Below, in pieces: positions 2,856 through 36,592 of a stretch of DNA of 36,592 nt; within the stretch, counting starts at the first letter, position 1; each line of letters begins with the position of its first letter. The notes beneath the pieces are model-generated. The model had not been told where the DNA came from. It did no database searches and was given only the letters and a program-made list of their open reading frames with translations. Origin of the DNA: a virus (taxonomy: Duplodnaviria > Heunggongvirae > Uroviricota > Caudoviricetes); the IMG/VR virus record IMGVR_UViG_2703718832_000006. The stretch is one strand, 5' to 3'. The position numbers were made by a program, and so were the translations under genes.

Positions 2856-3074
2856 TCAAAGAGAGAGCGCCACCTGTCCTGATTTCATTGGATGCGGCTG
2901 AACCGGATTTGACTCTTTTGGCGTTGCAATCGAACGAACAAAAGTTTCATGGGTAACAAAAGTATGGCTGCAGTTAATGTTCTGGCACTGGTTGTAACGC
3001 TCTTTGGTCAATGAAGATACCTGAAAACTGCTACGAGTATGGGCGGCACTTCCACACAGTGGGCAAATCATCAT
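2856..3074 (-). CDS. ogr: late gene transcription activator, Ogr/Delta zinc-finger family
   Basis: CPLCG...C..NC zinc-finger pattern (MMICPLCGSAAHTRSS...KERYNQCQNINCSHTF) typical of P2 Ogr / 186 B; start placed at internal Met 12 of the track ORF 2856..3107, giving about 72 aa. Confidence 0.85.
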   Translation of the reverse strand: MMICPLCGSAAHTRSSFQVSSLTKERYNQCQNINCSHTFVTHETFVRSIATPKESNPVQPHPMKSGQVALSL

Positions 3075-3164
3075 TTTTCGAGTTCTCCCCATTTTTGCTA
3101 AATTCACAATAATGATACCGCATTATTCCATTTTGCAAACTTAAAAGTTCTCCATTGCGAAGAA

Positions 3165-4265
3165 TCATTCCATTTCGAAATCATCAATCCTCACTTCAAG
3201 CTCCAGACTGGTTGTAAAACCGTTATCGGGGCTGACGGTATGCGTCAGAGTCGTAATGGTCCATTCCGCATCATCTATCGGCTGTTTAAAGCCACTGACC
3301 TTCACAGGCATTTCTGTGTAGAGATCTGCCCGCCCTTCCGCCAGTTGTAGCGAGAATGATGCAACGCCGCGTTGCAGGCGTTCCCACTGCATTTTCGCTG
3401 CCCGTTCGGCGTTGCTCCGGTTGGCATAAGTGCGATTAAGTACCAGCACGTTTTCATCCGTACCCACCAGGTAATCGCCCTGCTTCGCTTCCGGCTCTTT
3501 CTTCTGCTTCTTAGTCCTGCGCTTACGCTTCACCGTGGTGCTTTCTTTCTTCGCGGGTTCGCGGGTATGCAACCAACTGGCAATTACGCCCGTGTAGGCT
3601 CCGCGATCTGCCAGGGTAAAGCGGTGACTGTCGCCGTCCTTACGTGTGATTGAGATCACCGGCAGTGGTTTACCGCTGGCGCTTTTGCCCTGTCCCTGCC
3701 GGATGAATAACAGATTGCCATTTTTCACCGACGCGATGGCACCGTACTGGCGCGCCAGCCGCATCAGAAAACTGCCGTCACTCTCATTAGTCTGGTCTAT
3801 ATGCTCCACGGGCTTATCCGACAGGTCTTTACCCAGTGCCATCTTCAGCTTATGACGCGCGGCTATTTCCTTCACCACTTCCCCGACAGTGGTCTTGTGC
3901 CACGATTTTTCACGGCGGGTATTCAGCGTTTCCCTAAAATCAGCACTTCGCGCCCGGATAGTCAGGCGATCCGGTGCGCCGGTGTGTTCAATCTCGTCCA
4001 CCGTGAATGCCCCTTTCGGGAAAAGCGGCTGCCCCTTCCAGCCCAGCGCCAGCGTGATGACCGCACCACGGCGCGGCAGCACGATTTTTCCGTCGGCGTC
4101 GTCCAGCTCCAGATCAAGCTGGTCTGCTTCAAAGCCCCGATTGTCCGTCAACGTCAGACTCATCAGGCGGTTATCCAGCACAGTGGTGATATCCTTCCCC
4201 TCAATACTGATGCTGAATGCGGGAGTTTTGTTGCCTTTGTTAAGCAGTTCAGAGCTGAAATTCAC
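3165..4265 (-). CDS. tail protein D (late control gene D protein)
   Basis: 366-aa ORF immediately upstream of ogr and downstream of U, the position of P2 gpD. Confidence 0.85.
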   Translation of the reverse strand: MNFSSELLNKGNKTPAFSISIEGKDITTVLDNRLMSLTLTDNRGFEADQLDLELDDADGKIVLPRRGAVITLALGWKGQPLFPKGAFTVDEIEHTGAPDRLTIRARSADFRETLNTRREKSWHKTTVGEVVKEIAARHKLKMALGKDLSDKPVEHIDQTNESDGSFLMRLARQYGAIASVKNGNLLFIRQGQGKSASGKPLPVISITRKDGDSHRFTLADRGAYTGVIASWLHTREPAKKESTTVKRKRRTKKQKKEPEAKQGDYLVGTDENVLVLNRTYANRSNAERAAKMQWERLQRGVASFSLQLAEGRADLYTEMPVKVSGFKQPIDDAEWTITTLTHTVSPDNGFTTSLELEVRIDDFEME

Positions 4266-4747
4266 GACAGCAGCCCTCCCACCGTTTTACTGATATCGCT
4301 TAAGGCAGACGTTGCCGTATCCTGCAAATTATTCAGCTGCGTACTGAGATCACCGAACATATCGGACAGGGATTCATCCACCCGTTTGAGCGACAGGGTA
4401 AACTCAATCCGGCGCGGCATACCATCGCGGAAAAACTCCGTTTTAGTCTGATTCAGTCCCTCAATCACATACATGCCATAAATCGTGCCGCTGCCTTCAA
4501 TCAGGGGCCATGCTTTCCCCTGTTCTGCCATCTGCTCCAGTGCCAGCAACGACATCCTGCCACCTGTTATCTCCGGCATAAGAACACCGGAAAGCGTCAG
4601 CATGTCGTTGTCCGGTCCCAGAAACTGCGTGGACGGACGTCGGTTTACCCGGCTGTTTGCCGCATGTCGCCAGCTGCGTTGATACTGCAGCTCCTGATAC
4701 GGCACGGTGCGCAGCATAAACACGTACAATCCCAGCACCATCATCAT
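4262..4747 (-). CDS. tail protein U
   Basis: 161-aa ORF between tape measure and D, overlapping both by 4 nt (translational coupling), as for P2 gpU. Confidence 0.8.
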   Translation of the reverse strand: MMMVLGLYVFMLRTVPYQELQYQRSWRHAANSRVNRRPSTQFLGPDNDMLTLSGVLMPEITGGRMSLLALEQMAEQGKAWPLIEGSGTIYGMYVIEGLNQTKTEFFRDGMPRRIEFTLSLKRVDESLSDMFGDLSTQLNNLQDTATSALSDISKTVGGLLS

Positions 4748-7700
4748 GCGTCGTATCCCCCCTGATCGCTGTAGTTACTCCTAGCTTTTGCCTTCAGCCT
4801 GCGTTCACGTTCATCAAGCTGGCGGGCCACCTCCCGCGCAATATCCTGCGCACTTTGTCCTGGCTGCGTCTGAATGATGATCTGCGTCGGTGCCTCAATC
4901 CGTTGAACGGGCGGCACAGTGGCTGCACGACTCACCATCGCTTCGCCGCCTTTCGCGGGAAGTGCCAAAGGATGTAACGATGGAAGCTCTGTAGGCGCGG
5001 CAGCAACGCCCATCATTCCGGCAACAACCGCAGCCAGTGCAGCGGTATTTCTCCGGCTGGTCACGTTTGCCGGGCCGTTGACAATTTCCGGCCCGTTTTC
5101 ACCGACGATGCCAAACTGCCCGCGCGGGATATAGCCGCCGCTGTCATACATCCCCGCAAAGCCATATCCCCATGACGGAAAACCACCCGATGGCATCATC
5201 ACTTTACCGTCTGCATTCACCGTCGCAGGTTGCTGACGCGTCACGCTTTCCGGCAGTTTCGCCTTTGCAGCCTCTTTACTGACAATGCCGAGTTTATCCA
5301 GCAACCAGGAAACGCCGGATTTCAGGGAGTCCAGCGGATGCATGACCATATTCAGCCCTTCCGCCAGTGCCTCCCCGAATCGTCGCCCCATTGCCGCTGC
5401 GCTCTGCAGTTCGGCAGAGGTCGACTTAACAGGCGTCAGCAGATCAGTAAACCAGCCCCACAGCGCCTGCACTTTGTCGCCAATCCACTGGAACACGGGC
5501 TTAAGTGGTTCAAACGCTGCACTGATGGGACCTGCCGCCGCTTTGAATCCTTCCACCACGCCACCGAGAAATGCGGTGATGGGTTGCCAGTATTTCCAGA
5601 CAACCAGCGCCACACCCGCCAGTGCAGTAACCACAAGACCTATCGGACTAAGCAGAGCACCTAACAGACCAGATATGGCATACAGGGCAACGCGCAGCAT
5701 CGCCAGCGGACCAGATGCAAGCACTCGCAGCAACGCGCCTGCGGCTGCCAGTCCACCGCGCAGTACCGCCAGAGGATTCATAAACATCACAGCAACAGCA
5801 CGTAAACCGGATAATCCAGACCGCAAAAGTGCAACTGGCGCACCTGCTACAGTTTTCAGGACATTTCCCGTCAGTGATGCCGTGCGGCGCAAAGACGACA
5901 ACAGCGCAGTAAGTAAACCTGCGGCGTTGCCCGATGAAGCAAGCCCGCGTCGCAGCAGTGCCAGTGGTGCGCCAGCCAGCCAGGACAACGCGCTGCTGGT
6001 TCGAGTTACTGCTGCCGTAACGGAAGATAACGTTTTGATACCCAACACAGAGAATCCCAGACGGATCACTGCCAGCGGCCCCAGCACTGCAGCCAGCGCC
6101 ACCGCTAAGGTGCCGAGGCCGACGGTAACCGCAGCCACAACAGCCGATGCTTTCATCAGTGTGCCTGTCAGTTCCGGGTTAGCTTCCACCCAGCGACGCA
6201 ACGCCCCCGTGACGCTTTTCACCGTGTACAGAATATCCATCAGCGGCTGGCGCAGCGTTTCGCCCAGGCTGCTGAAGGTGTTCTGCGCTCCGGTTTTGAC
6301 CAGCAACCACTGCGCAGAAAGTGAATCCTTGTTAATGTCGGATTCTTTCTGCATGGAGCCGAGCGCATCATTGCCCGCTGTCAGTTTTAACTGACGCTGC
6401 AGTTCCGGCAGGTTGTTTGCCAGTTTCGCCGCGTCATCGCCAAACTCTTTACCAAACAACATAGTCATGGCAGACAGGCGCTTGTCCTGCGGCAGCGCGT
6501 TTACCTTCTCCAGCACGCGCTGGATGGTTCCCATCGCATCCTTCGTCATCTGCTTTTCAATCACTTCAGGATTGAGTTTCAGCAGATTCATCCCTTCAAA
6601 GAAACTCTTGCTTTGCATGGTGGCAATGGACAATTCACGCACCATCGCGTTTGCTGCACTGGCTGCAACCTCTGGCGCAGCGCCCAGTGTCAGGAAGGTG
6701 GAACCCAGCGCCGCCGCTTTACGATAATCCAGACGGTCAGCCACACCGCCCAGACGTTGCATCACATCAATGATGTCTGCCCCTTTCGACATGGCGTTAT
6801 CATCCAGATAGTTCAGCGCATCACCGAGCTGTTCAATATTGCGGGTGGGGATTTTGTAGAGCTGGGCGATTTTCCCCAGACTTTCTGACAGTTCATCCGC
6901 TGGCAGCTCAAAGGCTGTTGCCGCCTTTGCTGCCGTACTGGCGAAGGCCAGCAGGTCACGTTTCTGATCTTCCCAGCTGTCGTCAGGGTTTGCGACGTTC
7001 ATGCGCGCACCACCTTCAACCAGTGCAGCGAAGTCCACCGCACCGTTTTCCATCGGCAACTGTTCGCTGGCAGCCTTGATGGCATCCTGCATTTCATAAA
7101 AACGTGCAGTGCGGTTGCCATTATCGTCACGCAGACCATTGACCTGCTTTGCCACACCTTTCATGGCATCTTCCATGCTGGTATAGCTTTTTACTGCCGC
7201 CATCACTGGCGCACCCATTGCCAGCCCTGCAGCCGTGGTGGTGGCTCCGGCACCTGCAATACGATCACGCACCTCCAGCGAACGGGCATAACTGGCACGC
7301 GCTGCATTCATCCTGCGCTGAGCTTCCCCCAGTCGCTTCAGCCGCGCCTCCTGTTTCGAAAGTTCCTGGTTATAACGTGATGTTTCACGGGCTAAACGGG
7401 CAGTTGCTCCCGCATCGTCTTTCGCAGAAATTCCCGCCCGGTACAGTTCAGCACGCACAAGCGCCGTCTGCTGCTGCAGCTTTTTCTGGCGTTCTTCCAG
7501 GCGCTGAACAGCCAGCCGTTGACGGCCCAGAGCAACAACCTGACGTTGCGAAGGCGGCCCCATCGCTCCCAGTTCCTGACTGAGCAAATTTGCACGCTGG
7601 CGGGCATAGTTCAGCCTGTCGCCTAATTTCTGATTTTCTGCCTGCAGCTTTCGGAAGCTGTCCAGACTGCTCCCGGCCTGATCAAGCTGCTTTATTGCAT

Positions 7701-23916: not shown

Positions 23917-24959
23917 TGGGAAAGAGTAAGAAAAACCGCGCTGCGGCGACGAATCAGCTCAAGCATAAAAGCCAGACTTCAGCCGAAGCATTCAGCTTTG
24001 GCGATCCCGTTCCTGTTCTGGACCGCCGTGAACTGCTGGACTATGTGGAATGCGTACAGATGGACCGCTGGTATGAGCCGCCCGTCAGCTTTGACGGACT
24101 GGCACGAACCTTCCGCGCTGCCGTGCATCACAGCTCACCGATTGCAGTAAAATGCAACATTCTGACCAGTACCTACATCCCTCACCCGCTGCTCAGCCAG
24201 CAGGCTTTTTCACGTTTTGTGCAGGACTATCTGGTATTTGGTAACGCCTACCTGGAGAAACGCACGAACCGCTTCGGTGAAGTTATCGCCCTTGAGCCTG
24301 CTCTGGCAAAATATACCCGACGCGGGTTAGACCTGGATACCTACTGGTTTGTGCAATACGGTATGACAACCCAGCCGTATCAGTTCACGAAAGGCAGCAT
24401 TTTTCATCTGATGGAACCGGACATCAACCAGGAGATCTACGGCCTGCCAGGTTATCTTTCTGCCATTCCGTCAGCCCTGCTCAACGAGTCCGCCACGCTG
24501 TTCCGCCGGAAGTATTACATTAACGGCAGTCATGCAGGCTTCATCATGTACATGACCGATGCCGCGCAGAACCAGGAAGATGTGAACAACCTCCGCAATG
24601 CGATGAAAAGCGCCAAAGGTCCGGGCAACTTCCGCAACCTGTTTATGTACTCGCCTAACGGCAAAAAGGACGGGCTTCAGATTATCCCATTGTCAGAAGT
24701 TGCGGCGAAGGATGAGTTTCTGAATATCAAGAACGTGAGCCGTGATGACATGATGGCTGCGCACCGCGTGCCGCCGCAAATGATGGGGATTATGCCTAAT
24801 AATGTTGGAGGGTTTGGGGATGTGGAAAAAGCCGCGAAGGTTTTTGTCAGAAATGAGTTGGTTCCTTTGCAGAAAAGACTAGTTGAGCTAAACACCTGGA
24901 TAAATCAAAATATTGTGTCATTTAATGACTACATCCTTGACCAAGATAAGGGCATTTAA
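23913..24959 (+). CDS. portal (capsid vertex) protein Q
   Basis: 348-aa ORF overlapping the P stop by 4 nt; P2 gpQ position and size. Confidence 0.9.
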   Translation: MMGKSKKNRAAATNQLKHKSQTSAEAFSFGDPVPVLDRRELLDYVECVQMDRWYEPPVSFDGLARTFRAAVHHSSPIAVKCNILTSTYIPHPLLSQQAFSRFVQDYLVFGNAYLEKRTNRFGEVIALEPALAKYTRRGLDLDTYWFVQYGMTTQPYQFTKGSIFHLMEPDINQEIYGLPGYLSAIPSALLNESATLFRRKYYINGSHAGFIMYMTDAAQNQEDVNNLRNAMKSAKGPGNFRNLFMYSPNGKKDGLQIIPLSEVAAKDEFLNIKNVSRDDMMAAHRVPPQMMGIMPNNVGGFGDVEKAAKVFVRNELVPLQKRLVELNTWINQNIVSFNDYILDQDKGI

Positions 24960-25747
24960 TGCCCTTTTTTATCCTCATAAGCAACGTCATCGTATAATTT
25001 TAAGGCACCTAAATCATGTAATTGCTGCTTGAATTCCTTACTTAAACTAAACCCCTGAAGGAGAGAATATTTTTCAATAAATTTCTTGGCAGGCTTTCCT
25101 ACCGATGAAAAACCATTTAATAGCATCGCGCCAGATTCTATAGAAGATATTTGTGCTCTAACTAATTTCGCATACTTGGTTTTTTCTTTCTCAGTCAAAT
25201 AGTTAGAGTCATTGATATGTTTAAAAATATGGTAAATATTCCTGAAATAATGTCCCACATTCGCAAAATTGTCACCTTCCAGATAAACCATATTAACTGA
25301 AAGCTCTAACCTTTCATCCAAAGGAAGTGAATCATCCACAATATTAAGTAGGTTAAACTTCACTTCGGTAATGTATAATGAAAGAGCCTCCCGTCCTACA
25401 TACACTTTTCCATCTGAATACGTTGTTTTAATTTCTGATAAGTTATCTTTATGAAATCTTAGTAACTCAAATAACACAGACTCGAATGACTGAATAGATG
25501 ACTGCCTAGATGTAGAATATAGTGTGAAACAAACAAGCATGATAGAGATAAAGGCCAGAGCAGGATTCAGTACACCACCAATATAATCGCCAAACTGTCC
25601 CCATTTCTCTACGGAATCACTCCATGAATACATTCCAAATTTACAAACATAGCTAACAAACACTATCAGCATTAAAATAAAAGCCAAAAACAACAGTGAA
25701 TAAATAATGGCATAACGCTTAATATTTCGAAGAATGGCACCACACAT
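24956..25747 (-). CDS. membrane protein with two N-terminal transmembrane helices and a roughly 190-aa soluble C-terminal domain (cargo, function unknown)
   Basis: The track ORF 24956..25813 begins with a non-ATG codon and overlaps the upstream gene; the first ATG (Met 23, at 25747) has an AAGG about 10 nt upstream; two hydrophobic helices (AIIYSLLFLAFILMLIVFV and ALAFISIMLVCFTLY); AT-rich codon usage. Confidence 0.55.
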   Translation of the reverse strand: MCGAILRNIKRYAIIYSLLFLAFILMLIVFVSYVCKFGMYSWSDSVEKWGQFGDYIGGVLNPALAFISIMLVCFTLYSTSRQSSIQSFESVLFELLRFHKDNLSEIKTTYSDGKVYVGREALSLYITEVKFNLLNIVDDSLPLDERLELSVNMVYLEGDNFANVGHYFRNIYHIFKHINDSNYLTEKEKTKYAKLVRAQISSIESGAMLLNGFSSVGKPAKKFIEKYSLLQGFSLSKEFKQQLHDLGALKLYDDVAYEDKKGH

Positions 25748-25758
25748 CTCACAATACC

Positions 25759-26136
25759 TTATATATAATCCATATTTAAATCTATTGTATAAATACCTTT
25801 CCTCGCCACACAAGGAATAGATTTCTTTAAAATTCTAACATTTTTAATTTCCCACACATAATAACCTGGAGACCAAGGCTTATTAAGAGTTGTTTCTTGG
25901 TTTTGTTTTAAGTAATCCTCATATGACCAATTTCTAACTGAAACAAAATCGACAATAGCCATAGCCACCCCATGATCTATATCGCTTTGATTTTTAAGAT
26001 ATTTATCATTCTGAACAAGAATGACGTTTTTTAATGGTATCGTTTCAGGATACCACGACCGTATTTCGATAGATTTAGAACCATTTATAATATTTTCTAC
26101 CGCTGGAGTCAAAATCGATATAGCTTGAAACTTCAT
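25759..26136 (-). CDS. ASCH-domain protein (PUA-like fold)
   Basis: 125-aa ORF with the N-terminal GxKxxExR signature of ASCH domains (GSKSIEIR). Confidence 0.6.
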   Translation of the reverse strand: MKFQAISILTPAVENIINGSKSIEIRSWYPETIPLKNVILVQNDKYLKNQSDIDHGVAMAIVDFVSVRNWSYEDYLKQNQETTLNKPWSPGYYVWEIKNVRILKKSIPCVARKGIYTIDLNMDYI

Positions 26137-26201
26137 GCTCTATCCTCTACTATGCTAAGGCTATAACATTCTAACATAAATAAATAAACGGAGGTAATAC
26201 T

Positions 26202-26747
26202 ATGTTAATTTTCATAGCAGGTGTTCATGGTGTAGGCAAAGGTTACTTGTGTTCATTTGCAAAAGATGATTTCGGGGTAACTCATGTAAGCGCAAGCGAA
26301 CTTATAAAAAATAATTCTAATATTAAATTTGATAACAGTAAGTTAACGGCCACACCTGATAAAAACCAATCAATATTACTTACGGCACTTAATGCATTAA
26401 AGTTAAAGGTATCCAATATTTTATTGGATGGTCATTTTACCTTAATAAATAAAAATGGAGATATTGAAGTTCTCAAGCAAGAAGTATTTGAGGAAATGGG
26501 GCTAGATGGAGTAATTTTAGTTGAGGAGTCTCCCGATACAATTAGAGAACGAATAATGAAACGAGATGGGAGTGATATTACTTATGATTTAAATAAGCTG
26601 ATGGAAGCTGAAAGAGAAAACGCAAAATATGTTACAAATAAAATCAATGTACCATTAATTATCTTAGAATCCCCAACAACAAACGATTTATCTATTGCCC
26701 TAGAAAAACTGGGCATGGTTAAGAAACATGCCCAGACAACATTATAA
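26202..26747 (+). CDS. small P-loop NTPase, kinase-like
   Basis: 181-aa ORF with a Walker A-like loop at the N-terminus (IFIAGVHGVGKGYL) and a hydrophobic-strand aspartate (ILLDGHF); GGAGG RBS before the ATG. Confidence 0.65.
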   Translation: MLIFIAGVHGVGKGYLCSFAKDDFGVTHVSASELIKNNSNIKFDNSKLTATPDKNQSILLTALNALKLKVSNILLDGHFTLINKNGDIEVLKQEVFEEMGLDGVILVEESPDTIRERIMKRDGSDITYDLNKLMEAERENAKYVTNKINVPLIILESPTTNDLSIALEKLGMVKKHAQTTL

Positions 26748-27134
26748 ATAACGATAAGACTGTGGGGCGACGCCGCCGGGAATCAACTCATTTAAGTCGA
26801 CAGGGAATTTATATCTTTTAGGGCTTTTGATGGAAATAGCAAAAGCCTTTTCTCTTTGGTGGAAATAATCTTTAAAAAAAGAATGTGTAATTCCTGCATG
26901 AGCTTTCGTTTTATCCCACAATTCTGAAGGGGATAGAGCAAGAATATCTCCTACTTTAAATTCACCTATTACTTTGCCAACCGGCATCGTTGCGTAAATA
27001 ACTATCGTATCAACATTTTTATTTCTAAAAATATTTTTCCGAAACTCATATTTTTTTTTACCAGAAAGTATACTCTCTGCATACTCTGGCTTAATCGATA
27101 ATAAAACTTTCATCAACACCTCCCTGTAAGACAA
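26742..27134 (-). CDS. ASCH-domain protein (PUA-like fold)
   Basis: 130-aa ORF with the ASCH GxKxxExR signature (SGKKKYEFR); the start may be Met 8 (27113); its stop overlaps the convergent kinase stop by 6 nt. Confidence 0.6.
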   Translation of the reverse strand: MSYREVLMKVLLSIKPEYAESILSGKKKYEFRKNIFRNKNVDTIVIYATMPVGKVIGEFKVGDILALSPSELWDKTKAHAGITHSFFKDYFHQREKAFAISIKSPKRYKFPVDLNELIPGGVAPQSYRYL

Positions 27135-27672
27135 TCTGCTTAAATGCTGAATCAGTTAGTGGTAAAAAACCCCAATAATCACTATTGGTATAACCTGTAA
27201 TATTCATGATTTCATCACGAATAACTCTTTTTTCCAAAGGGAAATTATAAGTAAACCGTATAATTATCGGATAATTTTTTTTCATATATAGAAGCTGTAA
27301 CTCATCTTCATCAAAAACGCTATAAGGTTCACAGTAATTCTTAAATTCCTCATAAGTTAAGAAATCGTGAATATCTTTAATTTCCTGAACCACACACACT
27401 GAAGTTGCAACAGATCTAAACCGAGCTGGACCTTGTCCATCTGAAGTACGATAAATAAGCAAATTATCTCCAGGCTTTAGGCTGGCTACCCCATGCATTT
27501 TTGTTAAGTATACTTTTTCAATACTGTTGGTATGTGATATATCAGCGATGATACCAGCACTCTCATTGTGGAGTTTTGACTCAGGGAAAAGACGTGTATG
27601 CCATGCAGGATAAATACTTAATAAATAATTTCTCCCCTGCAATTTGACTAAGGGATAATTAGCATAGCTCAT
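27091..27672 (-). CDS. hypothetical protein (193 aa), middle gene of the GNAT-ASCH operon
   Basis: ORF packed between the GNAT and ASCH genes with a 3-nt gap upstream and an overlap downstream; no motif I can assign with confidence. Confidence 0.5.
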   Translation of the reverse strand: MSYANYPLVKLQGRNYLLSIYPAWHTRLFPESKLHNESAGIIADISHTNSIEKVYLTKMHGVASLKPGDNLLIYRTSDGQGPARFRSVATSVCVVQEIKDIHDFLTYEEFKNYCEPYSVFDEDELQLLYMKKNYPIIIRFTYNFPLEKRVIRDEIMNITGYTNSDYWGFLPLTDSAFKQIVLQGGVDESFIID

Positions 27673-27675
27673 TTT

Positions 27676-28146
27676 TTACTCCTTCCATACCAAGTTTTTA
27701 AAGTATACACCTTCTTGCCCATTAATCGTAGAAAGATTTTTCCTCGCCTTTAAAACAAAACCATATTTAGTTAATAAGCGAATTAATCCTGAATGCTTAT
27801 CAAATATAGTAACATATACTTCTTTTAGTTTGTTTCTCATAGCAAATTGAAACATAATTCTAATAAAACGCTCTCCAAGTTTGGTTCCATGAGCATCGAT
27901 TTTAAATGTGCCAAGCTTTACTCGCTTCATCTTTGGAAACGTTGGAGTCATATCACTCAACTCTTCATCTTCTATTTTCAAATAGAGAAAACCATCGATT
28001 TCACCTAATTCATTACGTGATACAAACGCCTTATTTTTACCTTTTGAGAGAAACCAAACATCAAATCCTTCATAATCAGCTCTTAGGCTGTTAAAAAACG
28101 GATCTTTTAAATCGATATCACTAAAAAATTTTTCCTCGATAGACAT
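27676..28146 (-). CDS. GNAT-family N-acetyltransferase-like protein
   Basis: 156-aa ORF with a GNAT-like core pattern (HGTKLGERFIRIMFQFA ... LIRLLTKYGF); fold assignment is by eye only. Confidence 0.5.
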   Translation of the reverse strand: MSIEEKFFSDIDLKDPFFNSLRADYEGFDVWFLSKGKNKAFVSRNELGEIDGFLYLKIEDEELSDMTPTFPKMKRVKLGTFKIDAHGTKLGERFIRIMFQFAMRNKLKEVYVTIFDKHSGLIRLLTKYGFVLKARKNLSTINGQEGVYFKNLVWKE

Positions 28147-33286: not shown

Positions 33287-33511
33287 CTATCGTTCTTTGT
33301 TCTTACGGTAACGCTCAAGGGGAGATACATTTTTTCGTACCGTCTCTTTAACCTGCTCTCCCCGTAAAAACGTCCCATCCTTTAGCGTGAAAAAGTAACT
33401 GCCATCGCCCGACAACGACGGATAACAACAGAGCAAATCATCTTCAGGTACTGAATAACTCTCCCCTCTGTAACAAAACTGATAAACCACTTCACTTTCC
33501 GCTGCATACAT
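33287..33511 (-). CDS. hypothetical protein (74 aa)
   Basis: ATG preceded by GGAG at about 10 nt; overlaps an alternative-frame ORF (33382..33708). Confidence 0.45.
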   Translation of the reverse strand: MYAAESEVVYQFCYRGESYSVPEDDLLCCYPSLSGDGSYFFTLKDGTFLRGEQVKETVRKNVSPLERYRKNKER

Positions 33512-33685
33512 TTTGACTTTCTCCGTTTCCTCGTGGTCAATTCAGACAGCAATTCATCTTGTGAATGACATGGATGCCAGCGTTTTCCATCCTCACCCAT
33601 GATCCAGCCGTGACCGTAGTGCATTGCCGGGCTTTGCTTTACCAGCAGCGATGCAAATGATGGTTCTTTCGTCAGCATAAGCACC

Positions 33686-34201
33686 TCACAGCAAACCGAA
33701 TGAAGCACCGAGGCCGGTCACGGTATCAACTGCACTCGCCATCGCAGGGTTAGCCTGTAAACGGGCCTGCAATGAAACAGCAGCCAACGCCATCAGTCGT
33801 GTTACAGAGTTAATGCTGCTGATAGCATCACGACGACCTGCACTGGTTTTTACATCGCCAGATACCGCACCTGCAGCAACACGCCCGATCTCTGCGGTTG
33901 CACTCATGACGTAATGTGGCAGTTTCTCTTTTGCCACCTCATTAATCGGTACACATGGCAGACAATGAATCTGTGCCAGAAAACCATCTACCAGCGTTGA
34001 ATCTTCAGTCAGATCGGTAAGCAGCCAGATTTCTGGTGCGGTTAATAGATGAGGCTGAGCTGGGTTCAGCTTGTTCCGCAGAATCTGCACATTCATGCCT
34101 GCACGTTCTGCCAGTTGCACCAGATTGTGGCGCAGTGCAAATGCACGACAGGCTTCATCAAAATGTGGATGTTTGGAAACTTGGTAATCAAACATGGTCA
34201 A
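33686..34201 (-). CDS. CII-like lysogeny-establishment regulator (phage 186 CII / CP76-type); P2 B-like not excluded
   Basis: 171-aa ORF immediately downstream of Apl/Cox with an HTH-like segment ([19 protein letters not shown]); N-terminus recalled as typical of 186-type CII proteins. Confidence 0.6.
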
Positions 34202-34227
34202 TGCCTCTGATGTATTTCAGAATCGAA

Positions 34228-34449
34228 CTAATTAAGGTTTAGATTGCATTCTGAAAGCGCATCAACGGTCATGGCTGCTATGTTGATCATCACTTTTTCG
34301 CGTTTTTTATCTTTGCGCAAACGGTGACGGATAAGGCGTCCGTCAGCCAACATGTCATTGATGGTATCGATGGACAGCCCTGTCAGCTCGCTATAGCGCT
34401 CAATAGTCACATGAGGCGTGGTAAGAGTGATTGAAATGTTAGGTCTCAT
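34228..34449 (-). CDS. Apl/Cox-like excisionase and transcriptional regulator
   Basis: 73-aa basic ORF with an HTH-like segment ([21 protein letters not shown]), divergent from the repressor gene. Confidence 0.65.
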
Positions 34450-34568
34450 GATGCAACATTCCTCGTTTAATGATGATTAATCAGGACGAATACGGATCGT
34501 TTGTATTTTGTGAACACCATAAACATACGATCGCACAATGAAATCGTCAAGATAAAAGTTCACTTGGA

Positions 34569-35144
34569 GTGACCATGAATTTGGAGAAAGGCGGACGAGG
34601 CGCTATAGAGCGCATGGTAGAAGCTTATGGATTCAAAACTCGACAGGCGTTGTGCGATCATTTAGGAATCTCTAAAAGTACACTCGCCACACGCTACATG
34701 CGTGACTCATTCCCAGCAGAATGGGTAATCCAGTGCGCCCTTGAAACGGGCACCTCGCTTAATTGGCTCACAACCGGACATGGTTCAAAGCAAACTTCAG
34801 GTAATACAAATACTATGGAAGTTGCTAAATATGTATTATCTGATGGTGCCTTGCGTGAAGACGGTTTTTATATTTTTGATAAGGGATTTCTACCCTCTAC
34901 GTTTAAAAAACCTTTTGTCATCACAGATAACAATTCTGAATTTATTTGTGATAAAGAATTTGATGATATACGTGATGGTAAATGGGTAATAAGTATTGAT
35001 GGCGAAGTAACGATCCGTGACATTACTCGTTTACCCGGTGGAAGAATCTTCGTCGAGGGTGGAAACAGAGCCTTCGAATGTAAGATAGAAGACATTGAAA
35101 TAATTGGTAAAATTATAAGTTTAACAGTCAAGTATGTTAAATAG
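34569..35144 (+). CDS. immunity repressor CI (186-type, about 190 aa)
   Basis: 191-aa ORF with an N-terminal HTH (RQALCDHLGISKSTLATRYMRD) and a C-terminal domain; divergent from apl and upstream of int. Confidence 0.8.
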   Translation: MTMNLEKGGRGAIERMVEAYGFKTRQALCDHLGISKSTLATRYMRDSFPAEWVIQCALETGTSLNWLTTGHGSKQTSGNTNTMEVAKYVLSDGALREDGFYIFDKGFLPSTFKKPFVITDNNSEFICDKEFDDIRDGKWVISIDGEVTIRDITRLPGGRIFVEGGNRAFECKIEDIEIIGKIISLTVKYVK

Positions 35145-35159
35145 TACCGGGAGGAAACT

Positions 35160-35351
35160 ATGCTTGGTAAGGTATTTTTTGTGGTTTTGTCATGTTCTTT
35201 GTTATTAAACCCACTAACTACCTATGCTAGAAATTATCCCTGCTCAGGGAAAAAGGGAGGTGTTTCTCACTGTACCTCAGATGGCAAATTCGTTTGCAAT
35301 GATGGAACTATTAGTAAATCCAAAAAAATCTGTACTAAAAACTCACGATAA
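35160..35351 (+). CDS. small secreted cysteine-containing protein (63 aa)
   Basis: GGGAGG RBS 6-7 nt before the ATG; signal-peptide-like N-terminus ([23 protein letters not shown]) and a roughly 40-aa mature part with four Cys. Confidence 0.5.
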
Positions 35352-35539
35352 CTTTTGCTTTTATATCTGCGTCTAAAATAAAAATGAGCCGCAGGTTAAC
35401 CGCAAAAGTTACATGCTCACATAGCAAAAAGAATAGCCAACTTCATTATGGCTTCAGTGAGATGTATGGTCGTAGGATTTCATACATTGACACTGGTTAT
35501 ACATACAGTAAAAATGCTCTCTACTGGAGGGCATTTTTT

Positions 35540-36592
35540 ATGGCAGTACGAAAACTCACCACAGGGAAATGGCTTTGCGAATGTTACCCCGCCGGACGAA
35601 GTGGGCGTCGTGTGCGTAAACAATTCGCCACCAAAGGCGAAGCTCTGGCTTTTGAGCGTCACACTATGGAAGAAACCGAATCAAAGCCATGGCTGGGCGA
35701 ATCAGTGGATCGTCGAACCCTGAAAGACGTGGTTGAGCTATGGTTCAAACTACATGGTAAATCTCTGACTGCTGGGCAGCATGTCTATGACAAATTGCTG
35801 CTGATGGTTGACGCTCTGGGCAATCCTCTTGCAACCGATCTCACCTCTAAAATGTTTGCCCACTATCGAGATAAACGCCTGACAGGCGAGATCTACTTCA
35901 GCGAGAAATGGAAGAAAGGAGCAAGCCCGGTCACCATTAACCTGGAGCAAAGCTATCTAAGTAGTGTTTTTAGCGAACTATCCCGTCTGGGCGAATGGTC
36001 GTATCCGAACCCACTGGAGAACATGCGAAAATTCACCATCGCAGAAAAAGAGATGGCATGGCTTACCCATGAGCAGATTGTTGAATTACTGGCTGATTGC
36101 AAACGTCAGGACCCAATTCTAGCACTGGTAGTTAAGATATGCTTAAGCACAGGCGCACGCTGGCGAGAAGCCGTAAATCTTACTCGTTCACAGGTGACCA
36201 AATACCGAATTACCTTTGTAAGAACGAAGGGGAAGAAAAACAGAAGTATCCCTATCAGTAAAGAGCTTTACGAAGAGATCATGGCGCTTGATGGGTTCAA
36301 TTTCTTCACAGACTGCTATTTTCAATTTTTATCCGTGATGGAAAAAACGTCTATCGTGCTCCCTCGCGGTCAACTCACACACGTTCTGCGCCATACGTTT
36401 GCGGCGCACTTCATGATGTCGGGTGGAAACATTCTGGCCTTACAAAAAATTCTCGGACACCACGATATAAAAATGACTATGCGTTACGCACATCTGGCAC
36501 CGGATCATCTGGAAACGGCGCTCCGTTTCAATCCTCTGGCAACGCTGCCAAGTGGCGACAAAGTGGCGGCAGCGGTTGGCATTACCCCGTAA
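35540..36592 (+). CDS. int: tyrosine integrase
   Basis: Start placed at Met 53 of the track ORF (GGAGGG about 10 nt upstream), about 350 aa; C-terminal catalytic signature R...HxxR...Y (LRHTFAAHF ... MRYAHL). Confidence 0.9.
   Translation: MAVRKLTTGKWLCECYPAGRSGRRVRKQFATKGEALAFERHTMEETESKPWLGESVDRRTLKDVVELWFKLHGKSLTAGQHVYDKLLLMVDALGNPLATDLTSKMFAHYRDKRLTGEIYFSEKWKKGASPVTINLEQSYLSSVFSELSRLGEWSYPNPLENMRKFTIAEKEMAWLTHEQIVELLADCKRQDPILALVVKICLSTGARWREAVNLTRSQVTKYRITFVRTKGKKNRSIPISKELYEEIMALDGFNFFTDCYFQFLSVMEKTSIVLPRGQLTHVLRHTFAAHFMMSGGNILALQKILGHHDIKMTMRYAHLAPDHLETALRFNPLATLPSGDKVAAAVGITP

Follow-up and report, generated by a model that had tools for sequence, protein, structure and literature searches.

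A small gene lying between the repressor and integrase genes of a P2/186-like prophage raises the question of what its product is, whether it is made in the lysogen, and what it does there. The window analyzed here, a DNA stretch of 36,592 nucleotides, opens with about 2.8 kb of host DNA (grxA-ybjM-ybjL, as judged by ORF size and comparison), which is followed by the prophage, whose end is the int stop codon. Close to this end, cI, the ORF of interest, and int are co-oriented on the + strand, with the divergent apl/cox and cII genes to their left. An earlier note on this DNA had described the ORF as encoding a 63-aa protein with four cysteines, preceded by a strong ribosome binding site and located between cI and int on the same strand as cI, and this description is confirmed here. 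The features of the locus are the following.

34575 to 35144, + strand: cI repressor gene of the 186/HP1 type, predicted to be the first gene of the lysogenic transcript (Pfam Phage_CI_repr, 2.7e-33; Phage_CI_C, 5.2e-29)
34795 to 35479, + strand: low-GC swap cassette comprising the cI C-terminal domain, ydcA, and the 3' spacer (homology breakpoints and GC content)
35149 to 35154, + strand: Shine-Dalgarno sequence GGGAGG, 5 nt 5' of the ATG (read from the sequence)
35160 to 35351, + strand: ydcA-family gene, ATG start, 63 aa, stop codon included (ORF list)
35160 to 35228, + strand: predicted signal peptide, 23 codons (variable hydrophobic leader, invariant Ala at -1)
35229 to 35348, + strand: predicted mature basic domain of 40 aa with C28, C38, C46, and C58 (composition, conserved motif, pLDDT, and purifying selection)
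35540 to 36592, + strand: tyrosine integrase gene, 350 aa (Pfam Int_N, 3.2e-32; Phage_integrase, 7.2e-22)

The stop codon of cI (TAG, 35142-35144), a gene whose counterpart at the matching position in RefSeq is named "phage repressor protein CI," is separated by 15 nt, taccGGGAGGaaact, from the ATG of the ORF, and a spacer of 188 nt lies between the ORF and int. An overlapping 50-aa ORF (35224-35376) and the antisense ORFs were unsupported, and a 402-aa extension of int from 35384 was rejected, leaving 35540 as the int start. The leader of the product is built like a Sec signal peptide, with n-, h-, and c-regions; it contains a single basic residue, a core of 12 hydrophobic residues, a proline at -6, and T-Y-A at -3/-1. 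All 30 aligned homologues have Ala at -1, the rest of the leader varies freely, and residues 3 to 15 form a helix in the AlphaFold2 prediction. Judged by sequence rules and the family alignment, signal peptidase I probably cleaves after T-Y-A, in line with the signal-peptide-like N terminus and the roughly 40-aa four-cysteine mature part proposed earlier. The 40 aa of the mature part include 4 Cys, 7 Lys, 2 Arg, and 2 Asp residues (pI 9.7, charge of about +7), and the AlphaFold2 model contains a confident small β-rich core with pLDDT values of 84 to 92 across residues 31 to 60. A fifth cysteine, C12, which the earlier note had passed over, is part of the leader; most homologues, among them E. 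coli K-12 YdcA and the homologue of Haemophilus phage HP2, lack it.

The protein belongs to an existing named and annotated family, a point that had also been omitted from the earlier note. It scored 115.8 bits against NCBIfam NF007463 (PRK10040.1-2), for which the curated cutoff is 93, and the match spans profile positions 1 to 58 of 58; with NF007462, the score was 68.5 bits, below the cutoff of 118. Residues 3 to 59 matched positions 1 to 56 of 56 of PHROG 6000, a group of unknown function, with an E value of 1.9e-34. All close homologues carry the precomputed Pfam label PF27300 (YdcA), and an identical sequence is present in RefSeq as WP_000900883.1, "YdcA family protein," encoded between genes for a "phage repressor protein CI" and a "phage integrase." In alignments of 30 and 150 sequences, the motif PCSGxKGG..C...F.C.DG..S.SK..C is nearly invariant, with C28, C38, C46, C58, K32, G33, G34, F44, D48, G49, S52, S54, and K55 being invariant or nearly so. 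Between homologues, pN in the mature part is 0.09 to 0.24 versus a saturated pS of 0.67 to 1.0, a pattern that demonstrates, at the level of codon comparison, purifying selection on this part. Because of the NF007463 and PHROG 6000 scores and a pN far below pS, family membership is far beyond chance, and the ORF very probably encodes a real secreted YdcA-family protein.

Relatives are numerous. Searching 1.84 billion representative proteins with a profile yielded 464 clusters at 50% identity, and a word-indexed search yielded 1245 clusters at 90% identity, from Proteobacteria, phages, and plasmids; in IMG/VR, 493 viral stretches encode a relative. Several other matches were set aside. A Pfam scan with a model set that did not include PF27300 returned only a subthreshold GULLO2-like match (E value of 0.075), which was discarded; the same match reappears with an E value of 0.0033 for a homologue from an Acinetobacter plasmid. 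An NCBIfam lpg1681 match (E value of 0.11), which led to a Legionella study dealing with HGA susceptibility, was too weak, and a precomputed DUF3761 (PF12587) label on one member with a triple repeat was not reproduced upon rescanning. We found no functional study of YdcA in the literature. Both the gene and its family are already annotated, and the family is functionally uncharacterized; what is new here is the swap cassette, the conserved cI-ydcA-int order, which includes HP2, the relationship to Dis2, and the association with nucleases.

Comparison with related phages revealed that ydcA occupies an exchangeable slot. Nucleotide homology to phage vB_EcoM-813R9 ends at position 34794, within cI and past its DNA-binding domain, and resumes at 35480 with 96.9% identity, and the intervening cassette has a GC content of 0.34 to 0.37 versus 0.51 across the whole window. 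Between the same breakpoints, 813R9 encodes a 558-aa protein that PADLOC assigns to PD-Lambda-1 (3e-120), the slot is filled in Klebsiella phage 4LV2017 by a 349-aa gene of unknown function, and in phage 186, cI directly abuts int with nothing in between. These data show that ydcA is the cargo of a low-GC cassette of about 0.7 kb that recombines as a unit between the cI N-terminal domain and the int leader. The ydcA cassette was found in 631 of 5426 complete E. coli genomes (about 11.6%) and the int type in 1135, so that about half of the prophages with this integrase carry ydcA. A megablast search with 34460-35560 against a phage collection matched the int leader only (35482-35560), in Klebsiella phages; the cassette is therefore absent from the isolated phages of that collection. 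Previous work has described the cI-int interval as a defense hotspot in K139-like, P2-related Vibrio phages (PMC9122126), and 8% of P2 defense systems were reported to be located between integrase and primase (PMC13586616). The earlier proposal that the gene is a candidate for lysogenic conversion is supported insofar as the slot carries cargo and defense genes, as illustrated by PD-Lambda-1 in 813R9 and by the Vibrio phages; the suggestions of a toxin or bacteriocin and of surface modification, which had been offered along with it, were not supported, as detailed below.

The position next to cI is not confined to E. coli. Of 80 species-level loci encoding a relative, 25 are located within 6 kb of P2-like phage genes. 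At 9 loci, the gene directly follows a cI homologue on the same strand, and int usually lies downstream. The cI-ydcA arrangement was found in Escherichia, Buttiauxella, three Yersinia species, a Pasteurellaceae MAG, and two Haemophilus parainfluenzae strains, showing that this placement recurs across the Peduoviridae. Haemophilus phage HP2 and an S2 fragment contain an unannotated gene for a 60-aa homologue, the ATG of which overlaps the cI stop codon; it is followed by a gene for a signal-peptide OB-fold protein and then by int. Identities between the E. coli prophage and HP2 are 33% for cI, 49% for Int, and 54% for YdcA. The two Int proteins have the N terminus MAVRK in common, and in the alignment with HP2 YdcA, the mature core matches more closely than the leader. 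Family members are found on phages, on small mobilizable plasmids, and in contexts resembling mobile genetic elements (MGEs); those on Acinetobacter and Rhizobium plasmids include one on a five-gene MOBQ plasmid of 3.9 kb. In Moraxella siphophages, the ydcA gene follows the tail chaperone gene T, and in Acinetobacter phages, it lies in a different module.

As to whether the protein is made in lysogens, the annotated records of 186, HP2, and K139 have pL or PL driving cI and the downstream genes. The short gap after cI, the strong Shine-Dalgarno sequence, and the overlap of cI stop and ydcA start codons in HP2, H. parainfluenzae, and the Pasteurellaceae MAG argue for co-transcription and co-translation with cI, and ydcA is probably expressed together with cI in lysogens. 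No terminator-like site was found by a terminator scan between cI and the ORF on the + strand, and a consensus scan of the + strand upstream of cI did not locate the lysogenic promoter pL. The 188-nt spacer 3' of ydcA is unusually structured (z = -5.95), and the following signals were seen in this region.

35349 to 35411, + strand: stable stem-loop from the ydcA stop codon onward (RNA fold of 35347-35415, -20.5 kcal/mol, z = -5.0)
35487 to 35515, + strand: putative promoter-like sequence TTGACA-17-AAAAAT upstream of int (10/12 in a consensus scan)
35510 to 35538, + strand: terminator-like hairpin AAAAAUGCUCUCU-ACU-GGAGGGCAUUUUU (RNA fold of 35505-35548, -17.5 kcal/mol, z = -6.1)

The first stem-loop has no U-tract on the + strand. 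The hairpin before int has 13 bp, with an A-tract and a U-tract on opposite sides; it pairs the int Shine-Dalgarno sequence GGAGGG and ends 1 nt 5' of the int AUG. The terminator scan missed this hairpin, which RNA folding shows clearly. The promoter-like sequence, which lies in the int module shared with 813R9 and 4LV2017, would, as read from the sequence, start transcripts within the hairpin. An Rfam scan of 34200-35700 gave nothing credible. We hypothesize a maintenance transcript that effectively consists of cI and ydcA and from which int is insulated, with the hairpin before int probably stopping or silencing this transcript.

The composition of larger family members provides one indication of function. 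Long members consist of a signal peptide followed by the YdcA domain, a flexible linker, and a catalytic domain, the last being Endonuclease_NS, SNase, or PLDc_2, in addition to a weak HNH match; no other enzyme class was found as a fusion partner among the 20 long proteins scanned. PF27300 is combined with PF01223 in 15 of the best 120 clusters, and two of these cases lie in mobile-element or defense-like neighborhoods. At five species-level loci, a stand-alone ydcA gene is located directly beside a gene for a secreted SNase in the same orientation, and at a sixth, the two are fused. Tandem repeats of the YdcA domain also exist, and the core domain, with about 32 residues, has an average net charge of +3. 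These data show a link of the YdcA domain to secreted nucleases, with three nuclease folds represented. In the fusions, the same domain directly follows the signal peptide, and mobile-element contexts recur, whereas the prophage protein has no catalytic domain. According to a review, periplasmic nucleases encoded by MGEs block transformation (PMC12378983), and such enzymes, e.g., IdeA, which act against incoming DNA, provide a precedent in theme for the prophage protein.

A second indication came from structural comparisons. The only significant PDB match was Dis2 of Legionella pneumophila (Lpg0823; PDB 7MUC and 7MUD), with profile E values of 6e-5 and 4e-6 and with Dis2 also being the top Foldseek match (probability 0.97). 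Sequence identity is 39% over 38 columns, and both display the pattern CS-K-GG-x3-C ... VCN-G-xxS; Dis2 is a small periplasmic module pinned by disulfides, as is predicted for the phage protein. Dis2 lies under the outer membrane in the Dot/Icm outer-membrane cap, where it touches DotK, DotC, and DotD, and it has two similar lobes pinned by five disulfides; its authors considered it to be Legionella specific and without structural relatives, and its deletion had only subtle effects. Based on both the sequence profile and Foldseek, the YdcA mini-domain resembles one lobe of Dis2. The likeness in sequence and fold is to a single lobe and does not extend to a two-lobed protein built into a type IV secretion system (T4SS): the phage protein is a single lobe of 40 aa, and, unlike Dis2, it has as its neighbors the cI and int genes of a P2/186-like prophage lysogeny region.

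For a possible mode of action, the closest analogue by position and compartment is Glo of Vibrio phage K139. Glo is likewise a signal-peptide protein encoded in the cI-int interval of a P2-related phage, within the PL lysogenic operon, and the K139 record describes it as a "periplasmic protein; involved in phage exclusion." However, Glo has 137 aa and a different composition, and a BLASTP E value of 0.17 indicates no sequence similarity, so that it was rejected as a homologue and is regarded as an analogue rather than a family member. PD-Lambda-1 of 813R9 has the identical cI-int position and the same breakpoints, but its protein is unrelated, with 558 aa, DUF4041 and T5orf172 domains, and no signal peptide noted. 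A scan of the prophage ORF against PADLOC-DB 2.0 gave no family match at an E value of ≤0.01.

Taken together, these data suggest the following model. The ydcA gene would be transcribed with cI from the lysogenic promoter, and on this account, YdcA protein would be made continuously in lysogens. Signal peptidase I would cut the Sec signal peptide, releasing into the periplasm a Lys-rich peptide of 40 residues with four Cys, which would fold into a mini-domain locked by two disulfides. This domain may be a small basic module that binds DNA or an envelope partner close to the outer membrane, one that secreted nucleases of other bacteria carry at their N termini and would use for targeting. The free prophage domain would hinder foreign DNA from crossing the envelope, acting like Glo as a periplasmic superinfection-exclusion or anti-uptake factor. 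A lysogen-made periplasmic binding module that probably interferes with incoming DNA, by a mechanism of this kind, is the best explanation overall, and we put it forward tentatively, as somewhat short of probable. A function in exclusion or defense against incoming DNA is, taken by itself, possible but on the doubtful side. The link to nucleases is guilt by association and fits an anchoring, pro-domain, or inhibitor role equally well. It is of note that Dis2 binds proteins and not DNA and that its deletion has little effect, which counts against this model. Also to be counted against it are the genes of the Moraxella and Acinetobacter siphophages, which are placed in late or other modules and not beside a repressor.

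A broader version of this model is conceivable, although we regard it as unlikely. The YdcA domain could be a previously unrecognized periplasmic module devoted to DNA traffic across the envelope of Gram-negative bacteria, which either binds DNA or docks at DNA-transfer machinery close to the outer membrane. In this scenario, it would serve nucleases for targeting, Dis2 would represent a tandem version, and temperate phages and small plasmids would employ the domain on its own, as a minimal periplasmic factor of about 4 kDa and of a new class, against superinfection, conjugation, or natural transformation.

The prophage copy could alternatively be a host-benefit envelope factor that acts like chromosomal YdcA, for example, in tolerance to acid or organic-acid stress, and that would increase the fitness of the lysogen and have no role against incoming DNA. 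K-12 YdcA (b1419; PF27300/PRK10040 group) is a member of the same family, with 30 of 53 residues identical (about 57% overall for the mature part), the motif PCSGxKGGxSHC in common, and, as in the prophage copy, a signal peptide and a single domain of about 35 aa. It differs in that its gene is chromosomal, between rydC and hokB, whereas the prophage copy lies in the cI-int slot, falls under a different NCBIfam submodel, and has a different leader and its own C-terminal tail. In the literature, K-12 YdcA is listed as a protein with a signal sequence, predicted to be periplasmic and of unknown function. Its sole reported phenotype comes from E. coli W, in which a ydcA deletion caused sensitivity to 3-hydroxypropionate (3-HP; 300 mM), and the authors of that study cite acid-induced, YdcI-dependent ydcA expression. 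The location of this paralogue on the chromosome, outside any prophage, and 3-HP sensitivity as the only reported phenotype speak for a general envelope role. Many members, at 55 of the 80 loci, are likewise chromosomal without phage neighbors, and Dis2 touches OmpA-like and lipoprotein partners near the outer membrane. However, the association of the family with mobile elements and nucleases is strong, a proven defense gene occupies the same slot in the sister phage, and the 3-HP phenotype is a single observation without a mechanism that is overridden by a yieP deletion. We consider an envelope factor of this type rather unlikely.

The fusions to three nuclease folds and the adjacent, co-oriented SNase genes, together with the ability of MGE-borne periplasmic nucleases to block transformation, would also be consistent with the free domain being a partner or regulator that binds, inhibits, activates, or positions a periplasmic nuclease of the host, such as endonuclease I. 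This is decidedly unlikely, as no nuclease gene was noticed beside ydcA or among those ORFs of the window that were examined, K-12 ydcA is not adjacent to endA, there is no sign of a direct protein-protein contact, and substrate binding or anchoring explains the fusions equally well.

The product is small, cationic, Cys-rich, and secreted, features that are compatible with a toxin, a bacteriocin-like peptide, or a surface-modifying factor, as suggested in the earlier note. We consider this very improbable. The leader is of the ordinary Sec/signal peptidase I type and not of the double-glycine type, so that the dedicated leader of a bacteriocin or microcin is missing. The neighbors are cI and int only, and no immunity, export or transporter, maturation, or modification gene accompanies them. 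Furthermore, a housekeeping-like paralogue exists in K-12, the domain serves as an N-terminal module of larger enzymes and occurs in tandem repeats, and nothing would carry the product across the outer membrane; for surface modification, no support was found. Finally, an anchor through Cys12, making YdcA a lipoprotein akin to the exclusion lipoproteins Cor and Llp, is extremely improbable despite the V-L-S-C sequence in the leader and the label "Lipoprotein" given to one Yersinia homologue by its source database, because VLSC is the sole candidate for a lipobox (pattern sought, [LVI][ASTVI][GAS]C) and its cysteine comes too early, ahead of the usual position of a lipobox cysteine, and is not conserved, whereas the Ala-X cleavage site is invariant.

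In summary, we describe here a small secreted protein that, in the preferred reading, is a periplasmic binding module made by the lysogen. To a specialist, a small secreted cargo gene in a lysogeny operon is unsurprising; the family is abundant and tractable. About 1 in 9 complete E. coli genomes carries exactly this prophage cassette, and there are more than 1200 family clusters at 90% identity, yet no member has a known function. The links described here, namely, the nuclease fusions, the likeness to Dis2, and the conserved position within the lysogeny operon in hosts ranging from E. coli to Haemophilus, make a hypothetical protein testable and give Dis2 and K-12 YdcA a common context. If it is expressed with the repressor, YdcA would be a constant product of the lysogen and hence a simple candidate for a factor in prophage protection or envelope fitness, and the YdcA family could hint at a novel type of periplasmic factor.

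The interval between ydcA and int contains the following predicted RNA structures and promoter-like site:

35349-35411, stable stem-loop starting with the stop codon of ydcA (RNA fold -20.5 kcal/mol, z -5.0)
35487-35515, promoter-like TTGACA-17-AAAAAT, overlapping the 5' arm of the hairpin at 35510-35538
35510-35538, 13-bp hairpin (RNA fold -17.5 kcal/mol, z -6.1)

The 35510-35538 hairpin has an A-tract on its 5' side and a U-tract on its 3' side, its 3' boundary lies 1 nt upstream of the int AUG, and in the RNA fold the int Shine-Dalgarno sequence, GGAGGG, is base-paired within it. Since the promoter-like site overlaps the 5' arm, transcripts starting there would lack this inhibitory arm. This suggests that int is kept insulated from the cI transcript by a putative hairpin/promoter-like element, which is part of an int module common to the sister phage 813R9 and the Klebsiella phage 4LV2017. 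The stem-loop at 35349-35411 lacks a U-tract on the plus strand, and part of it was scored in a scan as a minus-strand terminator-like site (35405..35389). A near-consensus promoter-like site on the minus strand, TTAACA-17-TATAAT (35140..35112; 11/12 matches), lies antisense within the AT-rich 3' end of cI and may be a chance outcome of low GC content. Downstream of cII, also on the minus strand, a Fil-like region (33287-33708) is broken into two ORFs, 74 aa and 108 aa long, that overlap; its equivalent in strain TW14425 is a Fil-family pseudogene according to RefSeq.

In 813R9, the gene occupying the cI-int slot (4085-5761) is labelled "chromosome segregation ATPase" but is, judged from its PADLOC match (3e-120) and its DUF4041 and T5orf172 domains, a PD-Lambda-1 defence protein. 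Three items occupy the window's copy of the classical P2 hotspot, located between portal and gpA (24956-28146):

24956-25813, minus strand, putAbiC-like protein
26202-26747, plus strand, AAA_17 kinase-like ORF
27676-28146 and 27091-27672, minus strand, PDC-M11A candidate defence gene in two adjacent ORFs, matching the N-terminal and C-terminal halves, respectively, of a single profile

Haemophilus phage HP2 (NC_003315) has an unannotated 60-aa YdcA-family ORF at 2920-3102, its ATG start overlapping the stop codon of cI. It is followed by orf1(S) (3112-3876), the product of which has a signal-peptide-like N terminus and a tRNA_anti-like OB-fold domain (PF12869; 2.8e-13). A gene for a secreted SNase-type nuclease adjoins stand-alone ydcA in the same orientation at loci L139, L141, L161, L165, and L168; such neighbor loci occur in Xanthobacter, Aquabacter, and several MAGs, and in a Methylococcales MAG (L149) the two are fused. 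The 3916-bp MOBQ mobilizable Acinetobacter pittii plasmid pApiMCR53a carries five genes, one of them YdcA family (728-904) and flanked by a TraD-family gene and a gene for a 243-aa hypothetical protein. A setting of this type may be the source of the UniRef label "Conjugal transfer protein" on the E. coli prophage YdcA protein.

Variants of ~105 to 150 aa (P0056, P0058, P0060-P0062, P0108, and P0132) have an additional C-terminal CxC...CTGPRGGxYC...G.K.Y segment, and those with a named source are betaproteobacterial. This segment is another small basic cysteine module, scoring as a PBCV basic adaptor domain (PF08789) in two variants. Finally, Dis2 (Lpg0823; PDB 7MUC chain AN), a component of the Legionella Dot/Icm outer-membrane cap, gave a YdcA-type match (profile E value, 4e-6; Foldseek probability, 0.97). 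While the published view is that Dis2 is Legionella specific and has no structural relatives, from the profile and Foldseek matches it appears to be a divergent tandem YdcA-type domain.
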